Below, one piece after another: positions 2,851-54,312 of a DNA stretch of 64,000 nt. The notes beneath the pieces are model-generated. The model saw nothing but the letters and a program-made list of their open reading frames with translations. It had not been told where the DNA came from and made no database searches. Both the position numbers and the translations under genes were made by a program. Numbering within the stretch: the first letter of the stretch is position 1; every line of letters begins with the position of its first letter. The stretch is from Bacteroidia bacterium (lineage in GTDB: Bacteria > Bacteroidota > Bacteroidia > UBA4408): contig DAORJK010000013.1 in assembly GCA_035438985.1 (NCBI GenBank), positions 23,416 through 87,415 on the forward strand. The letters run 5' to 3'.

Positions 2851-3086
2851 TTGTTAATAATTTAGACCTGCGTAATTGAGGCTGAAAGTAAAGCCGGAGC
2901 AATTGGTTACTACAGAAATGCTTCCCTCACCGGAGGAAATTGACAAGGAGCTTATTCGGAAAGAGAAGAAGCGAAAAAGAGGATGAAAACCCTACAGAAT
3001 CTCGCCTATAATGCAGCACAATAGATATTAACAGTCTGGGTTTTGTAACCTTCTTAAGAATCATTTCGTTTTTACGTTTGATATTC

Positions 3087-3141: not shown

Positions 3142-3450
3142 ATGCTTCATTCGCATAGTGTAGAAAATGAAAAATTCGGTCTCTTTATTCTGTTTTTAAA
3201 TCACCTTTTAAGTGGCGAAAAGAAATATGAGGAAACCATTAATAATGTTTTGATTGAAACGCGTGCCCTGGTTAAAGGAGAGAAGGATGTATACACAGTC
3301 AATCGAGACACATTTCCAATAATTATTTACTTAAGCAAAAGGAATAAAACTTTTTTTGAAAGCCTGCCGAATACAAAATCTTTTGATAAACAAGTTTATA
3401 CAGATTTGTTTTCACTTCTTGACCGACAACGTCCAATTAGCATAATTTAG
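3142..3450 (+). CDS. Hypothetical protein (102 aa), first gene of the cassette
   Basis: ATG ORF whose stop is 3 nt before the next start (3454). No recognisable motif. Confidence 0.5.
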   Translation: MLHSHSVENEKFGLFILFLNHLLSGEKKYEETINNVLIETRALVKGEKDVYTVNRDTFPIIIYLSKRNKTFFESLPNTKSFDKQVYTDLFSLLDRQRPISII

Positions 3451-3453
3451 TGA

Positions 3454-4650
3454 ATGTCTCCGCGCCTTTTAGAACTTCACTTCTCTCAGTTAGCTAAGGC
3501 CTGGAATAAATCTCAGTATAACAACTACTCTGATAATAATAAAAAGCTTTACCACAATAAACTCGGAGATCTTTACCGGCTTTTAAAAACAGAAGACTTT
3601 TCCAGATTTTCCCAACAAGAAATTATGGAACGGTATGATGTTATTAATATGATTTTCAAAAGCCTGGAGTTTTTGGACAGCAGCACATTAAATCTTCTTC
3701 CCTTCGAAATTGTTACCTGTTTAGATTGTGCTTTAAGAGATTGGCTTCAAGGCGATGAAGAGTTGATTATTGTAACCTCTCTTGTTAACGATATTAATAA
3801 TTACAGCTTTGATGAATCTTTAGCAACGAATGAACAGTTATTTAAGTATGTCGAGCTCCAATATGGAGTAAAATTTGCATCCAGATTAATTCAAATAAAT
3901 CTTCCAGCAACATTATCAAGAGATTATTTGGCCAATGTCGTGCTTTATCATGAACTAGGGCATTTTATTGATACAAAGTACCAAATTTCAAGGGCCATTC
4001 ACGATGAAATTTTAGAGAAGCTTTTCGTAAAAAGAAAAATAACCCCTGAAGAAGAAAAAGAGTTAGCTGACTATTTCCCCTTTCTGGAAAATTACTTAGC
4101 CCTAGAGCCTTACTATAATAATCAAGGCGAAATAAAAGTATTGAGATATTATTTAGCTGAATATTTTTGTGACCTTTTCGCATCTCAATACATAAAAACC
4201 TGTTCGAGCCACTATTTACAATACCTGACTCAAGCATATGCTTCGCAACATAGCAACTCTCACCCATCAACAAAAAAAAGAGTAGAGCTTACAGAAAAAT
4301 TTTTATCCGGAGACGACAGCACGTTTACATTAAGCAAAATTAAGGAGGCAGTTAATAAAACAACAGCAGGTAAGAGTTTGTCAGTAAAGTTTGAAGAAAA
4401 GAAATCTAATGATTTCATCAAGCTTGTTCCTATAGATATTGAAAATGATAGCCAATTGCATTATTTATTTGTTCATGGCTGGGATCTCTGGTTGAATAAC
4501 TGGCACCTATTCGAGGAGCAAAACGAAATGAAATTCAAATTGGATCGAGAAAAGGTTTATGACATTGTAAATAGCTTAATAGAAAAATCTATTGGTAACT
4601 ATGTGGTTAAGACTAATTGGGATAAAGCGAAAGCCAATGTTTCTAAATAA
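3454..4650 (+). CDS. HExxH zincin metallopeptidase-like protein (M48-like/ImmA-like features), cytoplasmic
   Basis: Motifs in order are LYHELGHFID (HExxH), then AEYFCDLFASQY (E..D/A third-ligand-like helix), then SHPSTKKRVEL, which resembles the M48 'HPxxxxR' motif. No signal peptide or TM segments were seen. Confidence 0.65.
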   Translation: MSPRLLELHFSQLAKAWNKSQYNNYSDNNKKLYHNKLGDLYRLLKTEDFSRFSQQEIMERYDVINMIFKSLEFLDSSTLNLLPFEIVTCLDCALRDWLQGDEELIIVTSLVNDINNYSFDESLATNEQLFKYVELQYGVKFASRLIQINLPATLSRDYLANVVLYHELGHFIDTKYQISRAIHDEILEKLFVKRKITPEEEKELADYFPFLENYLALEPYYNNQGEIKVLRYYLAEYFCDLFASQYIKTCSSHYLQYLTQAYASQHSNSHPSTKKRVELTEKFLSGDDSTFTLSKIKEAVNKTTAGKSLSVKFEEKKSNDFIKLVPIDIENDSQLHYLFVHGWDLWLNNWHLFEEQNEMKFKLDREKVYDIVNSLIEKSIGNYVVKTNWDKAKANVSK

Positions 4651-5248
4651 GGGAGAAATAGAAAAACTTCTTAAAGAGGGAGAATTGATTATTAAGCCTC
4701 TCTTAGACACTAGTCAGGTCGGTGAAATATCTATAGATTTTAGGCTTGGTTATGATTTTTTGGTTTCTATTCAAGGCCGGGAGCCTTTTATTGATGCGTC
4801 TCTAAATAATGAAGACAGACATCCTATAAGTAGCTTTTTTCAAGAAACAAGAAGAAATATTGGAGAAACATTCTTACTACATCCTAATCAAACAGTTTTA
4901 ACAAGCAGTTTGGAATTTATAAAAATGCCCAGAGATGTTTTTGCTGTTTTAAATATGCGTAGTTCCTATGTTAGACTGGGGATAACAATTGCGACAATTA
5001 TTCAACCAGGTTATTGCGGTTGTATGTCCCTAGAGCTAACCAATACAAATAAAAATGCTGTAAACATGACGGTCGGTGCACCTATCATTCAGGCAAGATT
5101 GTATAGATTGTCTACGAAATCGAACTACTTCAGCAAACCTAGAAAATATATATGCCAAGTAAGGCCACAAATTTCTGCTGTAAATGACGATGGTGATTTA
5201 AAGATACTCCATCGCATTTGGGAGGAAAGCAATAATAAAATTACCTAG
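4637..5248 (+). CDS. dCTP deaminase / dUTPase-fold (Dcd-like) protein
   Basis: The preferred start is the ATG at 4637 (MFLNKGEIEKLLKEGELIIKP...), which overlaps the upstream stop (4648-4650) by 14 nt. Dcd-like motifs are SIDFRLG, NMRSSYVRLGI and QPGYCGCMSLELTN (compare E. coli DPGWSGCIVLEFYN). Confidence 0.75.
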   Translation: MFLNKGEIEKLLKEGELIIKPLLDTSQVGEISIDFRLGYDFLVSIQGREPFIDASLNNEDRHPISSFFQETRRNIGETFLLHPNQTVLTSSLEFIKMPRDVFAVLNMRSSYVRLGITIATIIQPGYCGCMSLELTNTNKNAVNMTVGAPIIQARLYRLSTKSNYFSKPRKYICQVRPQISAVNDDGDLKILHRIWEESNNKIT

Positions 5249-5266: not shown

Positions 5267-6142
5267 TCACTTAAAAACAATTCTTGTTCGAGAATAGTTT
5301 TTCTCCCCAGTCGGCATAATTAATACAAAAGCATTGTATGTATTATAGAAATAATGATACTGAAAAGTAGTGACCCCCTCATGTGTTGCAAGACAACATT
5401 GTCCAATAGTATGAAACTTCTTTTTCTTCAAATAATCTTGGACAAACGTCCATTCAATCCCTAATGTTTTTTGCCAAGTTATTTCCCCGAATTCATTTGT
5501 AAAAGAAGTGGATTGAAAATAATTTCTCACCATACACCCCTCCACAATAAAGTGTTCCGGGTCTTTCAATACTAATAGTGCGCATCGTTTCGAAGAGTAC
5601 TCGACATATCGCCTTATAGCTGCATGTGTTGAAGAACCAAATAATTTTGAAAGGTACATAGGAGATTTTATCTCAAGTGGTAATTTCTGCATCTCCTCAT
5701 CAAATCTATCAAGTTGAAATAATGTAGCCGAGGCAAAATAATTTGCTTCTGCTTCGAATTCATCCTTTGTATCCGGGTCAATCGTACTATCATCATCTTC
5801 CATGTACTCAAACGTTTGACGTTGCCAAGGCAAGGCTTCATGACCAACTTCATGAAGTTGAATAAATTTTTTTCGAACATCTGGTTGATTGGGATCGATA
5901 TAAATTACCTTCTCTCTCCTATCCAAAGCTCCACGCCACTTCCGCAGAGCTCGCTTCAAAACCTCAGAAGTTCGAAGTAAATAATTCTTTGGAATTTTTG
6001 TAATATCAGTTTTCGTATCTACAACCAGTTGAGAATATCGAACAATATTTTCAACTGGTGTTGGAAATATGCCCAATGCCTTGCTTTGTTTCAGGAAATC
6101 CAATGATACAAGCTCTATATCTTTTCGGGAACCTTTTTTCAT
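5267..6142 (-). CDS. ImmA/IrrE-family (DUF955, M78) metallopeptidase
   Basis: Contains the HEVGHEALPW HExxH motif followed by EAEANYFASATL. Its start overlaps the upstream XRE stop in an ATGA (6139-6142). Confidence 0.8.
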   Translation of the reverse strand: MKKGSRKDIELVSLDFLKQSKALGIFPTPVENIVRYSQLVVDTKTDITKIPKNYLLRTSEVLKRALRKWRGALDRREKVIYIDPNQPDVRKKFIQLHEVGHEALPWQRQTFEYMEDDDSTIDPDTKDEFEAEANYFASATLFQLDRFDEEMQKLPLEIKSPMYLSKLFGSSTHAAIRRYVEYSSKRCALLVLKDPEHFIVEGCMVRNYFQSTSFTNEFGEITWQKTLGIEWTFVQDYLKKKKFHTIGQCCLATHEGVTTFQYHYFYNTYNAFVLIMPTGEKNYSRTRIVFK

Positions 6143-6525
6143 TTTTTGTTTTCCGAACGAATAAACTTCAAATAACTTATCAATACTTTTTCTTCTTCCG
6201 CTGAGAGATTTTCAGAGGAGAGAGCATATCCTCCCAATGAATGTGGCGCACTACCCTTACCAACAAAATTTTTAGTTCCATTTTCTACCAGAGGAGAATC
6301 AATGATGCCAGCATCTGTCAATAAGTGACTGAAATTTATTCCATAAAGGTTTGCTAATTTATAAAGAACGTTGGCTGAAGGCTTTTTTATTTTATCGTGC
6401 TCAAGCTGACTTAAATAAGCATTCGATATTTCAGTTACTTCCTCCACCTGTCTTAATGTATAGCCTTTGGTTAACCTGGCGTTTTTGAGCTCTTCGCCTA
6501 TTGTTTTTTTGGTTTTTGAAATCAT
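6139..6525 (-). CDS. XRE-family helix-turn-helix transcriptional regulator
   Basis: The N-terminal IGEELKNARLTKGYTLRQVEEVTEISNAYLSQLEHDK... is a typical HTH_3 domain. It is the first gene of the XRE-ImmA pair. Confidence 0.85.
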   Translation of the reverse strand: MISKTKKTIGEELKNARLTKGYTLRQVEEVTEISNAYLSQLEHDKIKKPSANVLYKLANLYGINFSHLLTDAGIIDSPLVENGTKNFVGKGSAPHSLGGYALSSENLSAEEEKVLISYLKFIRSENKK

Positions 6526-6554
6526 TTTTAGGCTGTGTTAATGAGAAATCGCTA

Positions 6555-6562
6555 CAAATATA
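6555..6562 (-). promoter_or_regulatory. Candidate -7 box (TATATTTG on the minus strand) for the XRE-ImmA operon
   Basis: Plus-strand CAAATATA reads TATATTTG on the minus strand, about 30 nt upstream of the XRE ATG (6525). Confidence 0.3.
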
Positions 6563-6591
6563 AAATAAAAATGCTCAAAATCACAAGCTTA

Positions 6592-6618
6592 GCTAAATTT
6601 TTGCTAAATTAATTTAGC
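6592..6618. promoter_or_regulatory. Candidate operator: GCTAAATT half-sites including a perfect 16-bp palindrome
   Basis: GCTAAATTAATTTAGC (6603-6618) is a perfect palindrome. An extra direct half-site GCTAAATT lies at 6592-6599. The site is in the divergent intergenic region between XRE and the Ubl operon. Confidence 0.45.
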
Positions 6619-6625
6619 GGCTCTA

Positions 6626-6633
6626 TAATTTTG
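6626..6633 (+). promoter_or_regulatory. Candidate -7 box (TAATTTTG) for the Ubl-E2-JAB-E1 operon
   Basis: Matches TAnnTTTG. It lies immediately downstream of the palindrome and about 73 nt upstream of the ATG at 6706. Confidence 0.35.
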
Positions 6634-6705
6634 CTTGATATATTTAAAATTGCTTCGTATCTTTGGCAAAAATTAATTATTAAACAATCTAAAAAAAACA
6701 AAAAA

Positions 6706-7203
6706 ATGAAAACAATTCAAATTTATTTACATGGTGAAGAAGCCCGTGAAACAAAGCTTGTAGAAGTTTCTACCGATGCAACTATCGCAGATATTATCAA
6801 TAAGTATCGCGAAGAAACAAACATGCAGGGGGCAAAGTTAGAAGAGATAGATCTCTATTTTGAGGATGAAGAACATCCTAAAGAAAAGGGGCATCACATT
6901 GAGCACGCTGGAATAAAAAAACGACACCATGTTCACTGCCATAGATGTCAAAAGGTAGCAATATCAATTGAATATAATGGTCAGGTTAAGAACATTAGTG
7001 TGCCACCTTCAGCAACCGGTGTTATGATTTTAAAAAAGTCTGCAAAGGAGTTTGGAATCACCGAAAAAGATGCATCTGACTTATTACTTAAATTACCTAA
7101 CGAAGAAGTTCTACAGAAGACAGACCATATTGGGTCATTTGTATCATTTCCACACTGCGAAATAAAACTTTTATTAATTCACAATAAACAGATACAAGGA
7201 TGA
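6706..7203 (+). CDS. bilA: Ubiquitin-like protein, apparently tandem beta-grasp (ISG15-like), ending in a free C-terminal Gly (BilA-like)
   Basis: The ATG at 6706 (MKTIQIYLHG...) is preferred over the TTG at 6631. There are two halves of about 80 aa, each starting with a beta-strand-like K.IQIYL / KVAISIEY. The protein ends ...NKQIQG-stop, and the stop overlaps the next ATG (ATGA at 7200-7203). The symbol is assigned from operon architecture only. Confidence 0.65.
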   Translation: MKTIQIYLHGEEARETKLVEVSTDATIADIINKYREETNMQGAKLEEIDLYFEDEEHPKEKGHHIEHAGIKKRHHVHCHRCQKVAISIEYNGQVKNISVPPSATGVMILKKSAKEFGITEKDASDLLLKLPNEEVLQKTDHIGSFVSFPHCEIKLLLIHNKQIQG

Positions 7204-7676
7204 GACCAGATTTGCAGATTTTTAATAAGCATATTGAAGATGCCGAATTTCAAATCGGGCTGGATAATGGCATGTGGGGGATTTCGGATGATAATCCGGA
7301 GCGCCCCACTTGGCCATATATTACTATATGGGTACAAGCAGCTGCCAAACTGAATGCCCCTAATAAATATCATTTCAGGTTCGACTTAAATGGCTATTCA
7401 GCAATTGCTCCAACAGCCTGTCCTTGGGATGTAAGTGCCAATAAGCGGTTACCAGACAATCTCTGGCCCTGCGGAAAGAACTTTGTATCCTCTGTTTTTA
7501 GACCTAGTTGGAATCCCAATGCGCTTTATGCTCCCTGTGATCGCTTGGCAATGGCAGGGCATGGAGATTGGCAAACAAGACACCCTGAATTGTGGTGGCA
7601 GCCAACATTTAAAATTGATAAATACTTGCACTATCTACACAGGCTTTTAAATTCTTCAGACTATGTTGACTCATAA
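7200..7676 (+). CDS. bilB: E2-like (UBC-fold) ubiquitin-conjugating enzyme homolog (BilB-like)
   Basis: 158 aa, sandwiched between the Ubl and JAB genes with coupled overlaps. WNPNALYAPC resembles the UBC HPN...C active-site context. The assignment rests mainly on position. Confidence 0.6.
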   Translation: MRPDLQIFNKHIEDAEFQIGLDNGMWGISDDNPERPTWPYITIWVQAAAKLNAPNKYHFRFDLNGYSAIAPTACPWDVSANKRLPDNLWPCGKNFVSSVFRPSWNPNALYAPCDRLAMAGHGDWQTRHPELWWQPTFKIDKYLHYLHRLLNSSDYVDS

Positions 7677-8148
7677 ATTAGAAATATCAGAAACACTTTG
7701 GGTTAAATTAGTTGGACAACTGAGAATCCGAGGTAAGGGAAAACGCGAAACAGGAGCCTTTTTACTTGGCCCTTTAGAAAAACCTACCATTACAAAATTC
7801 ATTTGTTATGATGAACTTGACCCTCATGCATTTGACTCTGGGATAATTGTTTTTAGTGGAGACGGATATATCCCATTATGGAAATATTGTCGTGAAAACA
7901 ATCTTCGGGTTTGGGCTGACGTTCATACCCATCCAGGAACTTGGACAGGCCAAAGTAAGGCAGATAAAGAGCACCCCATGATATCTCAAAAAGGTCACAT
8001 AGCCTTCATTGTTCCGAATTTTGCAAAAAACAAAAAGCAGAAATTCACAGGAGTTGGGATATATGAATACTTAGGCGACCATAAATGGAAAATATGGACC
8101 AGTAACTCTAGTATTATTAAGCTAATTGTAGAAAAAAATGAAAGATGA
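7663..8148 (+). CDS. bilC: JAB/JAMM (MPN+) metalloprotease, deubiquitinase-like (BilC-like)
   Basis: Exact JAMM motif: the upstream Glu in KRETGAFLLG, then HTHPGTWTGQSKAD, which is H-x-H-x7-S-x2-D. The start overlaps the E2 gene by 14 nt. Confidence 0.85.
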   Translation: MLTHKLEISETLWVKLVGQLRIRGKGKRETGAFLLGPLEKPTITKFICYDELDPHAFDSGIIVFSGDGYIPLWKYCRENNLRVWADVHTHPGTWTGQSKADKEHPMISQKGHIAFIVPNFAKNKKQKFTGVGIYEYLGDHKWKIWTSNSSIIKLIVEKNER

Positions 8149-9511
8149 AATCACAGAAAATAACTTTAATCGCTTAGCCATTTGCATAATGACAAAACAT
8201 CGTTGTTCTTACGATGAAGCAATGGATAAGTTATGCGAACTAAAGTTAAATATAGTATGTGGAAGTGCGATAGGAAATTCTATTCCCTTACAAGCAGCAC
8301 TATTAACCGCTGTCAATACAGGGAAGCGTGCATTTTTAGGGGGCATATTTATTACAATCCCTGAGGATGTCAACACTTTGATCCCTTGGCCAAATAGCAC
8401 CTACTTAAATGACATAATAGTTGAACTAGGGGGACAAATAGTACAGAAACCTGTAGACGGAGTTTTTTCTCTAAAATTAGGTCTTTCAGCAAGTATTGAA
8501 GAAAACTCTTTAGAGGTTATTTGTAATAGTTGGCAAGGAGGCTTTTCAAACGGTGATAGTGATATTCGTTTGTTAGAAAGTAATAATATTCCTCTGGGAG
8601 GTATTGCTGCAGGAGCGCTGGGGGTTGGAACAGCTTTTCTTAGATTAACCAACATACAAGTTTCTGCAGGAGATGTATCAACAGGAATTTCTCTCTGGCG
8701 ACCGGACTTAGGCTGGCTTGATTATGAAGCAAATGGACCGGAGGTAATATTCCTACCGGAAAAATTTTGGTTACTTGGTTTAGGGCACTTAGGTCAAGCA
8801 TACTTATGGAACATAGCTTTTCTTCCTTATCCAGACTCTTCACAGATATCAATTCTTCTGCAGGACTATGATAAGATGTCGGTGGCCAATTTAAGTGCCG
8901 GACTAATCTGTGAAGAGGAAAATGATAAACAATTCAAGACTCGAATATGCAGCAATTGGCTCGAAGAGAGGGGTTTTAAAACCATTATATCAGAAAGAAA
9001 ATTTGATGAATCAACTAAATGTAATAGTAGTGAGCCATTAATTGCTTTATGTGGGTTTGATTCAGCCGTTTCGAGATTACATCTGGAAGATGCAGGGTTT
9101 GATTTGATTGTAGAAGCAGCTCTTGGTGGAAATTTATCATTGTTTGATAATATTATTTTACACACTTTCCCTAATGCACGTAAATCTCCAAAAGTAATTT
9201 GGGGAAATCTAAATTTTACTGACCAAGAGATTAATTCTGTTGTACTTGAAAAATTCTCGCATCTGAAAGAAAATGAATGTGGGATTATTGCTCAAACTCT
9301 TGCTAGTAAAGCAATTTCTACAGCTTTCGTAGGAGCGTTAGCAGGAGCGCTTGCAATTGCTGAATTATTGAGGGCATTAAACGGAGGCAAGAGATATGAT
9401 TTGATTGTCGCTCAAATGCGATCTTTGCAATATAAGAATGCCTCAATTCATAAAAATGAATCCTATAGTTCTGAAATGGCAAGAAACGGATTTGTTTCTA
9501 GTAAATGTTAA
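8138..9511 (+). CDS. bilD: E1-like ThiF/MoeB-family adenylating enzyme (BilD-like)
   Basis: Rossmann loop LLGLGHLGQAY followed by ILLQDYDKMSVANLSAG (compare the E1 'D.D.V..SNL.RQ' motif). 457 aa with an N-terminal extra domain. The start overlaps the JAB gene by 11 nt. Confidence 0.8.
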   Translation: MKDEITENNFNRLAICIMTKHRCSYDEAMDKLCELKLNIVCGSAIGNSIPLQAALLTAVNTGKRAFLGGIFITIPEDVNTLIPWPNSTYLNDIIVELGGQIVQKPVDGVFSLKLGLSASIEENSLEVICNSWQGGFSNGDSDIRLLESNNIPLGGIAAGALGVGTAFLRLTNIQVSAGDVSTGISLWRPDLGWLDYEANGPEVIFLPEKFWLLGLGHLGQAYLWNIAFLPYPDSSQISILLQDYDKMSVANLSAGLICEEENDKQFKTRICSNWLEERGFKTIISERKFDESTKCNSSEPLIALCGFDSAVSRLHLEDAGFDLIVEAALGGNLSLFDNIILHTFPNARKSPKVIWGNLNFTDQEINSVVLEKFSHLKENECGIIAQTLASKAISTAFVGALAGALAIAELLRALNGGKRYDLIVAQMRSLQYKNASIHKNESYSSEMARNGFVSSKC

Positions 9512-9571
9512 CCATTTTATTTTCCAGAAATTAATTATTTTTCGAAACAGTCTATTTAAAAGTTAAAAAAT

Positions 9572-10315
9572 ATGAAACGTAAAGCTATAGTAATTGGTGC
9601 TCCTGGAGGGGTTAAAAATGAATATTTAGAAGGTGTTCAATACGATTTCAAGAATTACATAAACTTCTTAAAATCACCAACGGGTGGTGCATGGGATTCG
9701 AGTGAAATTATCCCAGTAATGAATCCGAGCTCAATAAAGCTAAAGAACTACTTAAAAAACTTAAAGGTGGATTACACATTGGTGATATTTTCAGGTCATG
9801 GGGCCTATCAAATTGGTGATAGTACATATATTGCAGTGAACAGGACCGATTTAATTTCAGTCAATGAGCTAGTTACAAAATCGCCAAAACAATTGCTTAT
9901 CATAGATGCCTGTAGAAGTTTCATCGATAGTGGTATTTCTGGATTCTTAGAAGAGGAAGCTAAAAAATTTCCCTCAAAACTAAGCAGGATTGAGGGAAAA
10001 AGAATTTTTAAGTATCAGCTAGATAAATGTGAAAATGGACTGGTCGTTTGTTTTTCATCTATAATTGGTCAAAGTTCATACAGTAAAAATGACGGTGGTT
10101 TGTTTTCACTTAGCTTATTAGATACTGCCAAATCATGGGTTTTAACGCCTAGCAGGTTTGGTATATTGCCGATACAAACAGCCTTTACAAGAGCGAAAAA
10201 TTATACAATTCAAAAAACAAGAGGTATACAAGTGCCTGAACTTAAGGCATCCAATATTAAAAAAAGAACTACATGGTTTCCATTTGCCATAAGAAAACCT
10301 ATACAATCAGTTTAA
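9572..10315 (+). CDS. Caspase-like cysteine protease (peptidase C14 fold), stand-alone 247 aa
   Basis: N-terminal strand KAIVIGAPGG. The His-Cys dyad sits in canonical contexts: VIFSGHGAYQ (H76) and LLIIDACRSF (C114). It lies 60 nt downstream of the E1 stop on the same strand, with no obvious terminator between. Confidence 0.8.
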   Translation: MKRKAIVIGAPGGVKNEYLEGVQYDFKNYINFLKSPTGGAWDSSEIIPVMNPSSIKLKNYLKNLKVDYTLVIFSGHGAYQIGDSTYIAVNRTDLISVNELVTKSPKQLLIIDACRSFIDSGISGFLEEEAKKFPSKLSRIEGKRIFKYQLDKCENGLVVCFSSIIGQSSYSKNDGGLFSLSLLDTAKSWVLTPSRFGILPIQTAFTRAKNYTIQKTRGIQVPELKASNIKKRTTWFPFAIRKPIQSV

Positions 10316-22325: not shown

Positions 22326-22803
22326 TTTGAGCAAGTGGTGGGTTTCTAAAAACCTGATTTAATTTTTCTTCTAATCGAATAATTATTTTCTCAATGCTCT
22401 CAAACTTCTGATCTCGCTCCCAATGATATTTCTCCCTCGTTTTTACAATGCTCTGAATCTGATTTAAACATTCTGAAAGGATTTGCTCTAAATGCACAAT
22501 TTGTTCTGAATTTGGAACGATATAGCTTTGGTTGAGGTAAGACATTACAGCGGAGCGAATAAAGGCGGTAATTGTCATTTTATGCCTATTCGCTGCATGC
22601 TCAACTTTACTGTATTCACCATTCTCATTTGAGAAGTTGACCGTAAACTCCGGTTTATGATTGCGCTGATTCTGCTTGTATTTCAAAAGGTACTCCTTGC
22701 GGTAAGCAAGTTTTGCTGCCTTTATTTCCGCATCAGTTCCCTTTTCAAGAACTCCCGTTGCTTCTAAATATTCCCACAGTCCGTTATTGTTCCTTTTGCT
22801 CAT
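22300..22803 (-). CDS. MobC-like relaxosome accessory protein
   Basis: EFTVNFSNENGEYSKVEHAANRHKMTITAFIRSAVMSYL is an RHH-like segment, followed by LEQILSECLNQIQSIV (compare the MobC 'NLNQIAR' motif). It overlaps both neighbouring genes. Confidence 0.6.
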   Translation of the reverse strand: MSKRNNNGLWEYLEATGVLEKGTDAEIKAAKLAYRKEYLLKYKQNQRNHKPEFTVNFSNENGEYSKVEHAANRHKMTITAFIRSAVMSYLNQSYIVPNSEQIVHLEQILSECLNQIQSIVKTREKYHWERDQKFESIEKIIIRLEEKLNQVFRNPPLAQNDCQSKIL

Positions 22804-24241
22804 TTGCTTTTTGCTTTAGGGGTAAAACGGGAATGCTTTCAGTTGCTAGTTGGCCGATAATCTCTGGTGCTTCGATGTTGCTGTAGTCTTTAAATTTCGA
22901 TTGTCGGTAGTAAGGTTTAAGTCTCGCCAATATGGGTTGATGATGTCCACAAATTAGAATTGCTTGAGTATCTTTCATGGTTCTGATTTCATCATTTGTC
23001 ATGAGTGGTCGAACTACAGTTCTTTCCTTTTCATCTTTGTATTCATACCTTCCTAATGTTTGTTCCAATTCCTTTGCTGTTTCTAAGGATGTTCCGGTGA
23101 AATACATTTTTGCAAAACAGTTGGATTTAATTGCATCTGCATTGTTTTTTCCATAGTGATTTACCAGTTGATTAAAATCTTGTACCAAGAGCATGATTCC
23201 TGAGCGGTGCTTTCTGACATTGGCAACTGCTAATGATAGCGTTGGAAGGTAGAGTGATGATGCTTCATCAATTAGCAAGAAAATATCCTTCTCACTCTCT
23301 GAGGGAAAGCGTGAAAGAAGGAAAGCAAAGAATTGTTCGAAGAAAAGTGAGGTTAATACAGAGTAATATTTTTGGTCTGCTACCGAATTTTGTATGAACA
23401 ATGCTGTTGGTTTGTTTCTAAACTCAATTAGGTCAAGATTGTCTGTTGATGTAACTTTTGCAATAGATTCATCATTGAAAAGTTGAAGCGCAGCTTTGCA
23501 AGTGGCAATGACTCCACTTACAACTTTGTCATCATAAGCGATAAAGGATTTGTATTCTGCAAACAGAATTTCATCTGCATGTTCTGAAAACAAGGCATCT
23601 ACTGATTCTGGATTCCCTCCTAATCTGTTTAAGAGTTGCCTTACATTGTAAAGATTCTGAAATTCTGGTGCTTGCTTTTTTAGGATAGTGATAAGCATGG
23701 CAAGCAATGATGTTGCCTGAGAATTCCAAAATGGATCTTTGCTTTTTCCTCCTAATGCATTTTCAATTAAGAGAGAAGCAACCTTCTGAATATCCGATGA
23801 GCTTTGCGCTCTGACAAGTGGATTGTAACCCGAAGAATTATTCGGATTAGAAAAGTTCAGTACTTTGATTTCATGGCCTTTCTGCTTTAAATATCCTGCA
23901 CTTTTTGAAAAAAGCTCACCCGAAGGATCGTGAATGACAAAACTTCCCTTCATTGTGTATAGTGATGGAAAGAGCACCACGCTTGATTTTCCAGTACCAG
24001 TTCCTCCAATTATGAGTGAATTCTGATACGAATTTTTAACTGATAAATTTCTTCTTCCTGTGAGACAGAAGCCATATTCTCTGCTTGATAGCAGAGTTCT
24101 AGCACTTACAAATTCCGCATTGTAGCTATCCTTCTTTTTAGGAATAGCAGTCCAAGCGAATTGTATAAACTCGAAGATTCCTTTGAAAATACTTTCTAGA
24201 AGTTTTATGAAGAGTATGAGGAGTTGTTCTATGATTTTCAT
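22784..24241 (-). CDS. Type IV secretion coupling protein (TraG/VirD4-like)
   Basis: Walker A IIGGTGTGKSS, Walker B FLLIDEAS, and an N-terminal hydrophobic segment. Confidence 0.85.
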   Translation of the reverse strand: MKIIEQLLILFIKLLESIFKGIFEFIQFAWTAIPKKKDSYNAEFVSARTLLSSREYGFCLTGRRNLSVKNSYQNSLIIGGTGTGKSSVVLFPSLYTMKGSFVIHDPSGELFSKSAGYLKQKGHEIKVLNFSNPNNSSGYNPLVRAQSSSDIQKVASLLIENALGGKSKDPFWNSQATSLLAMLITILKKQAPEFQNLYNVRQLLNRLGGNPESVDALFSEHADEILFAEYKSFIAYDDKVVSGVIATCKAALQLFNDESIAKVTSTDNLDLIEFRNKPTALFIQNSVADQKYYSVLTSLFFEQFFAFLLSRFPSESEKDIFLLIDEASSLYLPTLSLAVANVRKHRSGIMLLVQDFNQLVNHYGKNNADAIKSNCFAKMYFTGTSLETAKELEQTLGRYEYKDEKERTVVRPLMTNDEIRTMKDTQAILICGHHQPILARLKPYYRQSKFKDYSNIEAPEIIGQLATESIPVLPLKQKANEQKEQ

Positions 24242-52749: not shown

Positions 52750-54312
52750 TTATTCAAACCCAACTCTCATCAGCTTAAACAATCGTCCTCTATCGGAATA
52801 AATTAGTAATTCATTGGGCAGGGTTTGTAGGTATATTTTAGGTCGGGGATACATCGGTTTATCGGAGGGAGTTAATAATGAACGACGTTTCATGTTGCCT
52901 TGGGCATCCAATGTTACCAATACACAGGTTGATTTTCGAACACCTCCAAAAATTCTATATTCTCTTGGGTTAGCTATAGTTAAGTTTCGTGAATTGTCGT
53001 TAAAAATGATGTTTGCAGTACTTCCCGAAATTGCAAGCGAATAACTGCTGTATGGGCCTTTATCGTTCACCGTAACTTGTGTTTTTGGAACCATTTTTAC
53101 CCAGTTTATTTTACCGGCAGTATCAATGGAAGCAACTATTAAATCATTAAAATTATAGTAATAATCGGTTGAGGTATACCTTCCATTATAACTCACATAG
53201 GTTTGTACATATCGCTGTTCGGCAACCATAAAGGCTCCGCCATCGCTTCGTTCGAGCAAGTGATTAATTTTAAACTGCCTTAACTCCTCTCCTCTTTTTG
53301 CTTTACTAACCGACATTACATTTTGTAAAAATCCCTTTTCTAAATCCTTGAATCCTTTTGATTTTACTTCTCGTGTTTTACCATCAATACACAAGTAAAA
53401 TGTTCCGGCCAAATCGTCTGAATAACGGCCTTTATTTGAAAAAAATCCGGCAGCAACCAAATCCTGCTTTGAGTTAATTTTAAAACTCATATCCGAAATT
53501 GTTTTACCATCCAATTGTATATCAAATTCTTTTACAACACTATTGTTGGGCTCCATCAAAAGTATTTTATAAAGATAACTGGGTCTATCTTTAAACCAAT
53601 TGCTTTTTTCGCCCACAGTTTCGGTTAGCATGTAAAAGTTGCCACTTTTATCAAGCACATAATCGTGTACTGTAAAATTTCCACTTACAAAAGGTAATTC
53701 AATGGTTGAATTCTGGTATAACTCGTTAAGGTCTTGATCAATTATTTTATACGAAAATCGAGTGTTCGTTCCCTTCTTGTTGAATTGGTTTTTAAAAACC
53801 AGAATTTTACTGCTATCGGTTGAGAGTAAAAAAATAAAATCAAGCTTCTCACCCTTGTTTTCGGCAAGCACCTCATCTAATTGCTTGCGATCGTTATCGG
53901 GTTCTCCATCCGGCTTTACATGTTGCACATAAGCTGTCGTTAGGTTGTTTTCTTTGTTGTAAAACGAGGTAAACAACAGTAATTTCCCGTTAAGGCAAAT
54001 CAAGTCTTCAAAGTGAACGTGCCTATTCTCACCTATTTCAGGCATTTTCAGTTCTTTCGAATAAATGAGCGACAAGGTTTCTGCATCATACTTTTCGATA
54101 AATTGGTCAGTAGGGCAAAAGGGACAAAAAGGATTATAGGTGTCTTTCACAAAATAAATTGACCGAGCATCTCTTCCAACAAACCTTGAAGGATATAGCT
54201 TTTTATCTGCCTCCGTTTCGGGCCCCCATTGAACTTTTGCCGTTTGAGCAGAAAGGGATTTTACTTGAACAGCAAACAGTATACAGAAAAAGATGTTTTG
54301 TAGCAGCTTCAA
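52750..54312 (-). CDS. Secreted hypothetical protein
   Basis: Signal peptide MKLLQNIFFCILFAVQVKSLSAQ. No motif recognised. Confidence 0.55.
   Translation of the reverse strand: MKLLQNIFFCILFAVQVKSLSAQTAKVQWGPETEADKKLYPSRFVGRDARSIYFVKDTYNPFCPFCPTDQFIEKYDAETLSLIYSKELKMPEIGENRHVHFEDLICLNGKLLLFTSFYNKENNLTTAYVQHVKPDGEPDNDRKQLDEVLAENKGEKLDFIFLLSTDSSKILVFKNQFNKKGTNTRFSYKIIDQDLNELYQNSTIELPFVSGNFTVHDYVLDKSGNFYMLTETVGEKSNWFKDRPSYLYKILLMEPNNSVVKEFDIQLDGKTISDMSFKINSKQDLVAAGFFSNKGRYSDDLAGTFYLCIDGKTREVKSKGFKDLEKGFLQNVMSVSKAKRGEELRQFKINHLLERSDGGAFMVAEQRYVQTYVSYNGRYTSTDYYYNFNDLIVASIDTAGKINWVKMVPKTQVTVNDKGPYSSYSLAISGSTANIIFNDNSRNLTIANPREYRIFGGVRKSTCVLVTLDAQGNMKRRSLLTPSDKPMYPRPKIYLQTLPNELLIYSDRGRLFKLMRVGFE

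Follow-up and report, generated by a model that had tools for sequence, protein, structure and literature searches.

What controls the anti-phage operon bilABCD in a member of the Bacteroidota, and is it the pair of genes transcribed away from it? We addressed this question in a 64-kb window, i.e. the 64,000-nucleotide stretch of contig DAORJK010000013.1 (assembly GCA_035438985.1, Bacteroidia bacterium), in which genes for an XRE-family DNA-binding protein and an ImmA/IrrE-like (M78) zinc metallopeptidase lie beside bilABCD, an operon for ubiquitin-like (Ubl) conjugation. CapH/CapP, the repressor/protease pair with which an initial annotation had compared these two genes, was defined by repression, cleavage stimulated by single-stranded DNA (ssDNA) and DNA-damage induction (Lau et al. 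2022, bioRxiv 10.1101/2022.04.27.489752; EMBO J 41:e111540). Here, we report that the pair likely acts on the neighbouring anti-phage operon, bilABCD, as a stress switch of the CapH/CapP type. The evidence comes from the two proteins, from the operons that their relatives face, and from a motif conserved in the promoter region that the pair shares with its neighbour.

The gene pair and the operon it faces

The XRE and peptidase genes overlap in ATGA (TCAT on the + strand, 6139-6142) and are divergent from bilA, which starts at 6706 on the + strand, across a 180-bp spacer (Table 1); both the overlap and the divergent layout are as initially annotated. The G+C content of the spacer is 23%, compared with 37% for the window as a whole, and the pair occurs only once in the 64-kb window.

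The peptidase matched Pfam Peptidase_M78 (4e-11), with the motif LHEVGHEALPW, as well as the PADLOC capP model (1.6e-20). HEVGH corresponds to residues 97-101, and 25 family members share H97, E98, H101, E130 and E132 without exception, i.e. the glutamates of EFEAEAN are kept along with the HExxH histidines and the catalytic Glu. The best sequence matched by the family profile in the PDB was Thauera CapP (7t5t, E 6.4e-9), while IrrE was marginal (0.32), and the sequence similarity to the solved CapP was confined to the peptidase and linker part. An AlphaFold2 (AF2) model based on the 25 family members had a predicted local distance difference test score (pLDDT) of 82 and a predicted template modelling (TM) score of 0.77. 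In Foldseek, the full-length model matched PprI with ssDNA (8sln), IrrE (3dte/3dti) and CapP (7t5t) with E values of 3e-8 to 1e-6 and TM scores of 0.53-0.66 over ~289 columns, and its beta-rich C-terminal domain matched GAF/PAS folds. The model has the three-domain layout of CapP, i.e. peptidase, helical linker and C-terminal GAF/PAS-like domain. NCBIfam contained no specific model for the peptidase, the Bil proteins or the caspase-like protein described below.

The XRE protein matched Pfam HTH_19 (8e-13) and HTH_3 (1.4e-10) and the PADLOC capH model (9e-10). Its family profile matched ICEBs1 ImmR (7t8i) at the top of the PDB results, together with the N-terminal domain of CapH (7t5u, at 1e-6 and 4.7e-9 in PDB sequence searches) and DdrO, and aligned end to end with SinR, including the C-terminal helical hook. 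In the AF2 model, a five-helix helix-turn-helix (HTH) domain (residues 9-71) is followed by a disordered linker (72-96) and two helices (97-103 and 109-127) with a pLDDT of 67-80; as modelled, this architecture is that described for CapH. In CapH, the C-terminal domain oligomerises and is also the site of the CapP cut (Lau et al. 2022). Throughout the XRE family, the C-terminal motif L-T/S-x-EEE-x2-L-x-YLKFLR is kept, and the recognition-helix region ISNAYLSQLE as well as K48-P49-S50 are invariant or nearly so; the near-invariance of ISNAYLSQLE fits one common DNA target for the family. In total, the likeness to CapH/CapP that had been proposed is supported by the PADLOC models, the PDB sequence matches, the predicted fold, the published divergent layout and a family-wide operator motif.

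The peptidase family is conserved over its full length, with 729 matches that are mostly from Bacteroidota, and most relatives among the 120 matches listed are ~49-66% identical to it. A scan of one genome per species gave 80 loci, here numbered with an L, to which L081, L082 and L084 were added by exact protein look-up. In 77 of the 80 loci, the peptidase gene directly follows the XRE gene; in the remaining three, a contig end truncates the locus. To classify the operons opposite the pair, neighbouring open reading frames (ORFs) were clustered and representatives annotated, which gave upstream data for 75 loci (74 from the scan plus the window). In 63 of these (84%, window included), the divergent partner is a Ubl-conjugation operon: Bub-like (Multi_ubiq, DUF6791-ThiF and DUF6527) in 30 loci, 6E-like (Multi_ubiq, small E2 and JAB-ThiF) in 23, BilABCD in four, type II CBASS-like (CBASS being an antiphage signalling system based on cyclic oligonucleotides) in three, and 6a (MBL and an E2/E1/JAB fusion) in three. 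The partner is other or unclassified in 12 loci; at least two of these (L013 and L046) also have genes of the JAB or the effector cluster that the CBASS-like loci contain.

The divergent Bil layout of the window is also present in L002, L016, L076, L081 and L084. L081, the peptidase of which is 86% identical to that in the window, contains BilABCD, XRE, peptidase, a dCTP deaminase and a 398-aa gene but no caspase gene; L084 (60% identical) contains BilABCD only; and L082 (63% identical) contains a Multi_ubiq/ThiF/HNH/DUF2188 operon. The operon in the window is complete, with the order Ubl-E2-JAB deubiquitinase-E1, near full-length profile matches, and overlapping or abutting ORFs.

Several further observations concern the relatives. 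Small genes for DUF2188 proteins (~70-95 aa) are repeatedly inserted beside the CapH-like gene, either in the stretch from the XRE gene to the Ubl operon or where the operon ends (L004, L028, L034, L044, L054, L068, L078 and L082), in agreement with a DUF2188 association noted by Lau et al. 2022. L024 and L074 belong to one metagenome-assembled genome (MAG; JBDTUH01, Chitinophagaceae), which has two cassettes with different Ubl cargo and the same operator motif, making cross-regulation of the two possible. Members also occur in MAGs of other phyla, i.e. L076/L063 (Opitutae/Oleiharenicola), L066 (Acidobacteriota), L020/L021 (labelled Bacillota) and L036 (labelled Erythrobacter), and result either from horizontal transfer or from binning errors. 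L076 has a Bil operon but lacks TAnnTTTG boxes.

The initial annotation had treated the Ubl genes and the caspase-like (Peptidase_C14) gene that follows bilD as a single operon, and this part of it did not hold. The caspase gene is absent from all five related Bil loci (L002, L016, L076, L081 and L084), and we rejected it as an integral Bil component. Moreover, those of its 27 homologues that we examined sit in other islands without Bil. We conclude that Bil and the caspase gene are a local juxtaposition and not a conserved unit. The defence-island neighbours of caspase homologues in L086, L088 and L090 include genes for NACHT, for pPIWI_RE/UvrD/nuclease and for TIR/HigB proteins, and other homologues lie between housekeeping genes. 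In the CBASS-like locus L033, a 31%-identical caspase relative (6872-7447) directly follows the CapP-like gene. On the + strand, no TAnnTTTG box was found within 370 nt upstream of the caspase gene (9200-9575); given that the gene lacks a -7 box of its own, read-through is plausible, and it may be read from the bil promoter.

Public RNA data for the locus consist of one sludge metatranscriptome (run X21) with two ~210-nt contigs, 7701-7910 in bilC and 8733-8946 in bilD, while no X21 contigs for the XRE or peptidase genes were recovered. These contigs show only that the bil operon is not silent in situ, with low-level bilC/bilD RNA. Two further runs labelled 'RNA-Seq' that hold the locus were dismissed as transcript evidence on account of their flat, DNA-like contig coverage.

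Candidate operators and promoter boxes in the shared spacer

The spacer contains the perfect 16-bp palindrome GCTAAATTAATTTAGC at 6603-6618 and the third half-site GCTAAATT at 6592-6599, both located where they had been reported. An exact-pattern chance test was set aside, as it tests one word, and a palindrome census with dinucleotide shuffles was used instead. The window has three perfect 16-bp palindromes with 1.8 expected, and 2.6% of 180-bp spacer shuffles contain one, so that the palindrome by itself is modest evidence and the weight falls on the comparison with relatives. The other perfect palindromes, a chance-level number, are CAACTTCATGAAGTTG at 5845-5860, over the HEVGH codons of the peptidase gene, and TGGTTTTTAAAAACCA at 53786-53801.

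No perfect palindrome is common to the 77 related spacers, and a common element surfaced only via k-mer enrichment. For 76 loci, we counted k-mers over the 200 nt that precede the XRE start and compared the counts with Markov shuffles: TGCTTGAT, which can also be written as TTGCTTGAT(A), was present in 40 of the 76 regions (0.9 expected), ATCTAAAT in 36 (2.4 expected) and TATCTTTG in 34 (0.8 expected). The aligned occurrences give TTGCTTGATATATTTAG(A/C)(A/T)T. The family motif is a 16-bp inverted repeat, GCT(T/A)(G/A)AT-N2-AT(T/C)(T/A)AG(C/A), i.e. GCTwrAT-N2-ATywAGm, which is perfectly symmetric in some loci, e.g. TGCTTGATATATCAAGCA in L009 and L010. The palindrome, GCTAAAT-TA-ATTTAGC, has the geometry of this motif with two 'A-type' half-sites.

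The XRE-upstream regions of the other loci, with the window left out, were then used to train a weight matrix 20 nt in length, with which we scanned the whole 64-kb window. Three candidate operators were located in the spacer (O1-O3; Table 1), and the window had no other strong operator match. The 23 bits of O1 were reached by 0 of 200 window shuffles and 0 of 5000 spacer shuffles, and at least three separate sites of ≥10.5 bits occurred in three of 5000 spacer shuffles; of the nine positions in 64 kb that reach ≥10.5 bits, four are inside the spacer. The T-rich segment 6686-6705 before the bilA ATG gave a match of 14.8 bits (TTTTTTGTTTTTTTTAGATT on the - strand; AATCTAAA is in the enriched word set), which is probably a low-complexity artefact. 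The centres of O1, O2 and O3 (~6640, 6610 and 6580) are exactly 30 bp apart. This three-site layout recurs in L084, L056 and L063, inter-site distances over the loci peak at 19-21, 30-32, 35, 49-53 and 60-61 bp, and positional equivalents of O2 are present in L084 (TTGTTAAATTTATTTAGCAC) and L081. In 73 of 77 loci, the region upstream of the XRE gene also contains the top matrix match of the entire locus; since this region served for training, the count is partly circular, whereas the result for the window is free of that circularity. Altogether, the spacer appears to hold a conserved repressor-binding site. The suggestion that the palindrome is an operator survives in part: it belongs to the family motif but is the central and weakest-conserved of three sites, the best being 6631-6650.

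Housekeeping promoters of Bacteroidota have the -7 box TAnnTTTG, and the 64-kb window contains 80 such boxes. We aligned the six Bil-linked spacers (window, L081, L084, L002, L016 and L076). In this alignment, TGCTTG in O1 (6632-6637) and GCTTG in O3 do not vary, and the same holds for the GC in the 6592 half-site and for the -7 box of the XRE gene. The TAnnTTTG at 6658-6665 keeps its position in all five Bacteroidota members (window, L081, L084, L002 and L016), whereas none is aligned to 6626-6633 in L081, L084, L002 or L016. The box initially annotated as facing the Ubl gene is indeed present at 6626-6633 but is unconserved, and the likely box is that at 6658-6665. The offset between motif and box is found across the family: strong sites facing the cargo operon have a CAAAnnTA box 3-8 nt beyond them in 59 of 80 cases, and sites facing the XRE gene are followed by TAnnTTTG after 2-8 nt in 26 of 50. 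From these positions, O1 and O3 are predicted to overlie the spacer and the -33 region of both divergent promoters, with the palindrome as a central third site, and O3 is a probable autoregulatory site. A scan for sigma-70 promoters and terminators gave counts equal to shuffle expectation; its model is of the wrong promoter type for this phylum.

This placement raises the question of whether the 16-20-bp motif owes its conservation mainly to the promoter, as a -33 region and spacer particular to these cassettes, or to another factor that binds there, with the XRE protein binding elsewhere or only to the perfect palindrome. A -33 element would be expected just where the motif always lies, at 3-8 nt upstream of a -7 box, and the TTG-containing arms of the motif resemble TTTG, the -33 element of Bacteroidota. 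We nevertheless consider this explanation unlikely: the motif has the dyad symmetry of an inverted repeat, which is perfect in, e.g., L009 and L010; central copies, i.e. O2 here and the 19-21-bp and 30-bp neighbours elsewhere, have no adjacent -7 box; it accompanies the XRE/peptidase pair across five unrelated types of cargo operon; and it is essentially unique in 64 kb despite the many TAnnTTTG boxes.

Table 1. Positions of the gene pair, the elements of the shared spacer and the genes opposite (numbering of the window)
Feature	Position	Strand	Remarks
CapP-like ImmA/IrrE (M78) zinc metallopeptidase gene	5267-6142	-	291-aa ORF; Pfam Peptidase_M78; PADLOC capP
CapH-like XRE repressor gene	6139-6525	-	128-aa ORF; Pfam HTH_19/HTH_3; PADLOC capH
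Shared regulatory spacer, XRE gene to bilA	6526-6705	.	180 bp
Probable XRE/peptidase -7 box, TATATTTG (+ strand CAAATATA)	6555-6562	-	~30 nt before XRE ATG; O3 8 nt upstream
Candidate operator O3, AAGCTTGTGATTTTGAGCAT	6571-6590	-	10.6 bits, ninth-ranked
Extra half-site GCTAAATT between O3 and O2	6592-6599	+	GC at 6592-6593 invariant in Bil-spacer alignment
Candidate operator O2, palindrome, core 6603-6618	6601-6620	.	12.6 bits, fifth-ranked
Initially annotated candidate -7 box, TAATTTTG	6626-6633	+	overlaps O1; not conserved
Candidate operator O1, TTGCTTGATATATTTAAAAT	6631-6650	+	23.0 bits, top in window; next best 14.8
Probable bil -7 box, TATCTTTG	6658-6665	+	41 nt before bilA ATG; O1 7 nt upstream
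bilA, ubiquitin-like protein, 165 aa	6706-7203	+	PADLOC BilA 1.5e-38, full-length profile
bilB, E2-like (DUF7665)	7200-7676	+	PADLOC BilB 1.9e-51; Pfam DUF7665 7e-42
bilC, JAB deubiquitinase-like	7663-8148	+	PADLOC BilC 3.3e-57
bilD, E1-like	8138-9511	+	PADLOC BilD 1.5e-132
Caspase-like (Peptidase_C14) gene, ~247 aa	9572-10315	+	Pfam C14 5e-11; 60 nt past bilD

A probable switch and its alternatives

We infer binding, repression, cleavage and the signal from homologues. A dimer or higher oligomer of the XRE protein would bind O1-O3; at 30-bp intervals, the sites share approximately the same side of the helix, an arrangement favourable to cooperative binding. Occupied operators would cover the spacer and the -33 region of both promoters, keeping bilABCD and the pair itself low. 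The M78 peptidase would be inactive until a damage or infection signal arrives, ssDNA being the activating signal in characterised CapP and PprI. Once activated, it would cut the repressor in or near the C-terminal two-helix oligomerisation domain, upon which the repressor would lose DNA binding and bilABCD would be induced; read-through might then induce the caspase-like gene as well. The core of this proposal, i.e. a CapH/CapP-like repressor/protease pair controlling a Ubl operon via a common promoter region, is supported by the observations above.

Several points weigh against it. First, the motif overlaps the expected -33 element, and part of its conservation could reflect the promoter and not an operator. 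Second, the matrix matches at O2 (12.6 bits) and O3 (10.6 bits) are weak, and L081, the closest relative, has only a degenerate O2. Third, the DNA-contact residues S32 and R40 of E. coli CapH are not conserved in the XRE protein; only K48 aligns, with CapH R44 (by our residue count on the alignment). Fourth, the cysteine-switch loop is absent, and this clade has no cysteine between HEVGH and EFEAEAN; the loop in its place is acidic (DDD) and of low model confidence. The cysteine-switch loop is present in 134 of 408 CapPs (~33%) and hence is not strictly defining (Lau et al. 2022). Fifth, public transcript data gave neither transcription start sites nor induction. Finally, phage protection in E. 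coli did not require CapP (Lau et al. 2022), which makes the biological benefit of induction less evident. CapP cleavage of CapH is known only for the E. coli and Thauera proteins.

The surroundings of the pair bear on what else it might regulate. Past the peptidase gene lies a three-gene operon (3142-5248, + strand) for a 102-aa protein, a 398-aa protein (YHELGH) and a dCTP deaminase that scores above the TIGR02274 cut-off. The same operon directly adjoins the peptidase gene in 10 of the 80 scan loci (L005, L007, L011, L012, L042, L048, L049, L062, L065 and L067) as well as in L081, in both orientations and with differing Ubl cargo, and has no PADLOC match. It may be an unrecognised nucleotide-depletion defence module hitch-hiking with the CapH/CapP cassette. 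That the pair serves this operon, in addition to or instead of bilABCD, would accord with this recurrence and with L005, L007, L011 and L012, in which the operon is co-directional and starts 133-168 nt after the peptidase stop, so that co-transcription or co-induction could follow. In the window, however, the operon and the pair are transcribed towards each other, TAnnTTTG boxes of the operon itself lie at 3073 and 3087, and no operator-like site precedes it here or in the 10 loci; we regard such a role as improbable.

The defence genes are flanked by a DDE transposase gene (1145-2680, + strand) and a gene for a type IV secretion system (T4SS) coupling protein (TraG/VirD4-like; 22784-24241, - strand), and the initial ~26 kb of the window may represent a decayed island of the integrative or mobilisable type. 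The window itself is chromosomal Bacteroidota DNA, with type IX secretion system sorting domains, SprB and MetH, and a near-identical locus is present in many activated-sludge and wastewater metagenomes. The two mobility genes, the recombinase/resolvase genes near the pair in L081 and L084, and ImmR as the top PDB match of the XRE profile are what would be expected if the pair were the ImmR/ImmA immunity module of a mobile element, its true targets being excision or transfer genes and bilABCD a mere neighbour. The initial annotation had itself allowed for this alternative, which we find very unlikely. The divergent gene is bilA, which the operators face, the promoter region holds no integrase, excisionase or transfer gene, and the nearest mobility genes are distant and have no other strong operator match near them. 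Moreover, the related loci face Ubl-conjugation operons in 63 of 75 cases and not mobility genes, and CapP is far ahead of anything else in the PDB for the peptidase profile.

Xre/COG2856 pairs have been proposed as toxin-antitoxin modules, the PDB entry of CapP is titled 'CapP toxin', and NCBIfam gave a weak match to a repressor/antitoxin family. That the two genes act on their own as a toxin-antitoxin-like or abortive module, without regulating their neighbours, is nonetheless very improbable, given the operators at the cargo promoter in a fixed geometry, the consistent divergent orientation towards Ubl operons, and the CapH/CapP reporter data that show transcriptional control (Lau et al. 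2022).

A stress switch of the CapH/CapP type for bilABCD could be part of a wider scheme, in which one CapH/CapP clade (45-60% identity, near-invariant recognition helix) with one operator serves at least five types of Ubl cargo, the cassettes of multi-cassette genomes, such as the MAG with L024 and L074, form one cross-talking damage-inducible regulon, and the caspase has been captured as a co-transcribed Bil effector. Taken as a whole, we hold this scheme to be doubtful.

Comparison with known systems

The closest characterised counterpart is the type III CBASS of E. coli MS115-1. It has the same order of HTH and M78 genes upstream of and divergent from the defence operon, and a conserved site in the shared promoter region. 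CapH has likewise an N-terminal HTH and a small helical C-terminal oligomerisation domain, and CapP has metallopeptidase, linker and GAF-like domains. By contrast, the pair described here is from a Bacteroidota genome with TAnnTTTG-type promoters, its cargo is Bil instead of CBASS, its peptidase lacks a cysteine-switch loop, and in place of a single 22-bp site upstream of the -35 element there are three predicted operators with 30-bp spacing directly upstream of the -7 boxes.

The DdrO/IrrE (PprI) system of Deinococcus provides the best structural matches of the peptidase model (8sln and 3dte) and follows a similar logic, in which the peptidase cuts an XRE repressor after DNA damage. It differs in that DdrO acts via another palindromic motif and governs a DNA-repair regulon on the chromosome, and the peptidase has very little sequence similarity to PprI/IrrE (profile E 0.32; ~11% identity when the structures are aligned). 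ImmR/ImmA of ICEBs1 shares the HTH that is the top XRE-profile match but controls excision and transfer genes, none of which is in this promoter region. SinR of Bacillus subtilis is alike in that the XRE profile aligns with its full length.

With respect to cargo, CapH/CapP is upstream of and divergent from 25 of 162 BilABCD operons (Chambers et al. 2023, PMC10557695), with the same bilA-bilB-bilC-bilD order and capH-capP upstream on the opposite strand; the pair beside Bil is an additional example of this published association. Those operons are mostly from Rhizobiaceae, whereas the host here is a Bacteroidota member from activated sludge and the locus has a caspase-like gene after bilD and the dCTP-deaminase operon beyond capP. 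Of 544 Bub operons, 168 also come with CapH and CapP (Ye et al. 2024, PMC11601596), in agreement with a companion paper, and the 6a and 6e Ubl operons had already been linked to CapH/CapP by Lau et al. 2022. As in these reports, most relatives of the pair (45-60% identical) adjoin Multi_ubiq/DUF6791-ThiF/DUF6527 or E2/E1/JAB operons, while the cargo in the window is Bil.

Because CapH/CapP divergent from Bil, Bub, 6a and CBASS operons was already in the literature, the discovery value of the pair itself is small. New in comparison are, for a large clade of Bacteroidota, the operator consensus GCTwrAT-N2-ATywAGm and the three-site 30-bp layout, the finding that one clade keeps a common operator over all cargo types, the corrected -7 box, and the caspase gene as an add-on. 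The regulator clade occurs almost exclusively with Ubl-conjugation systems and is a handy genomic flag for them; if induction follows that in E. coli, mitomycin C or a similar agent could be used to switch on such Bacteroidota systems experimentally.

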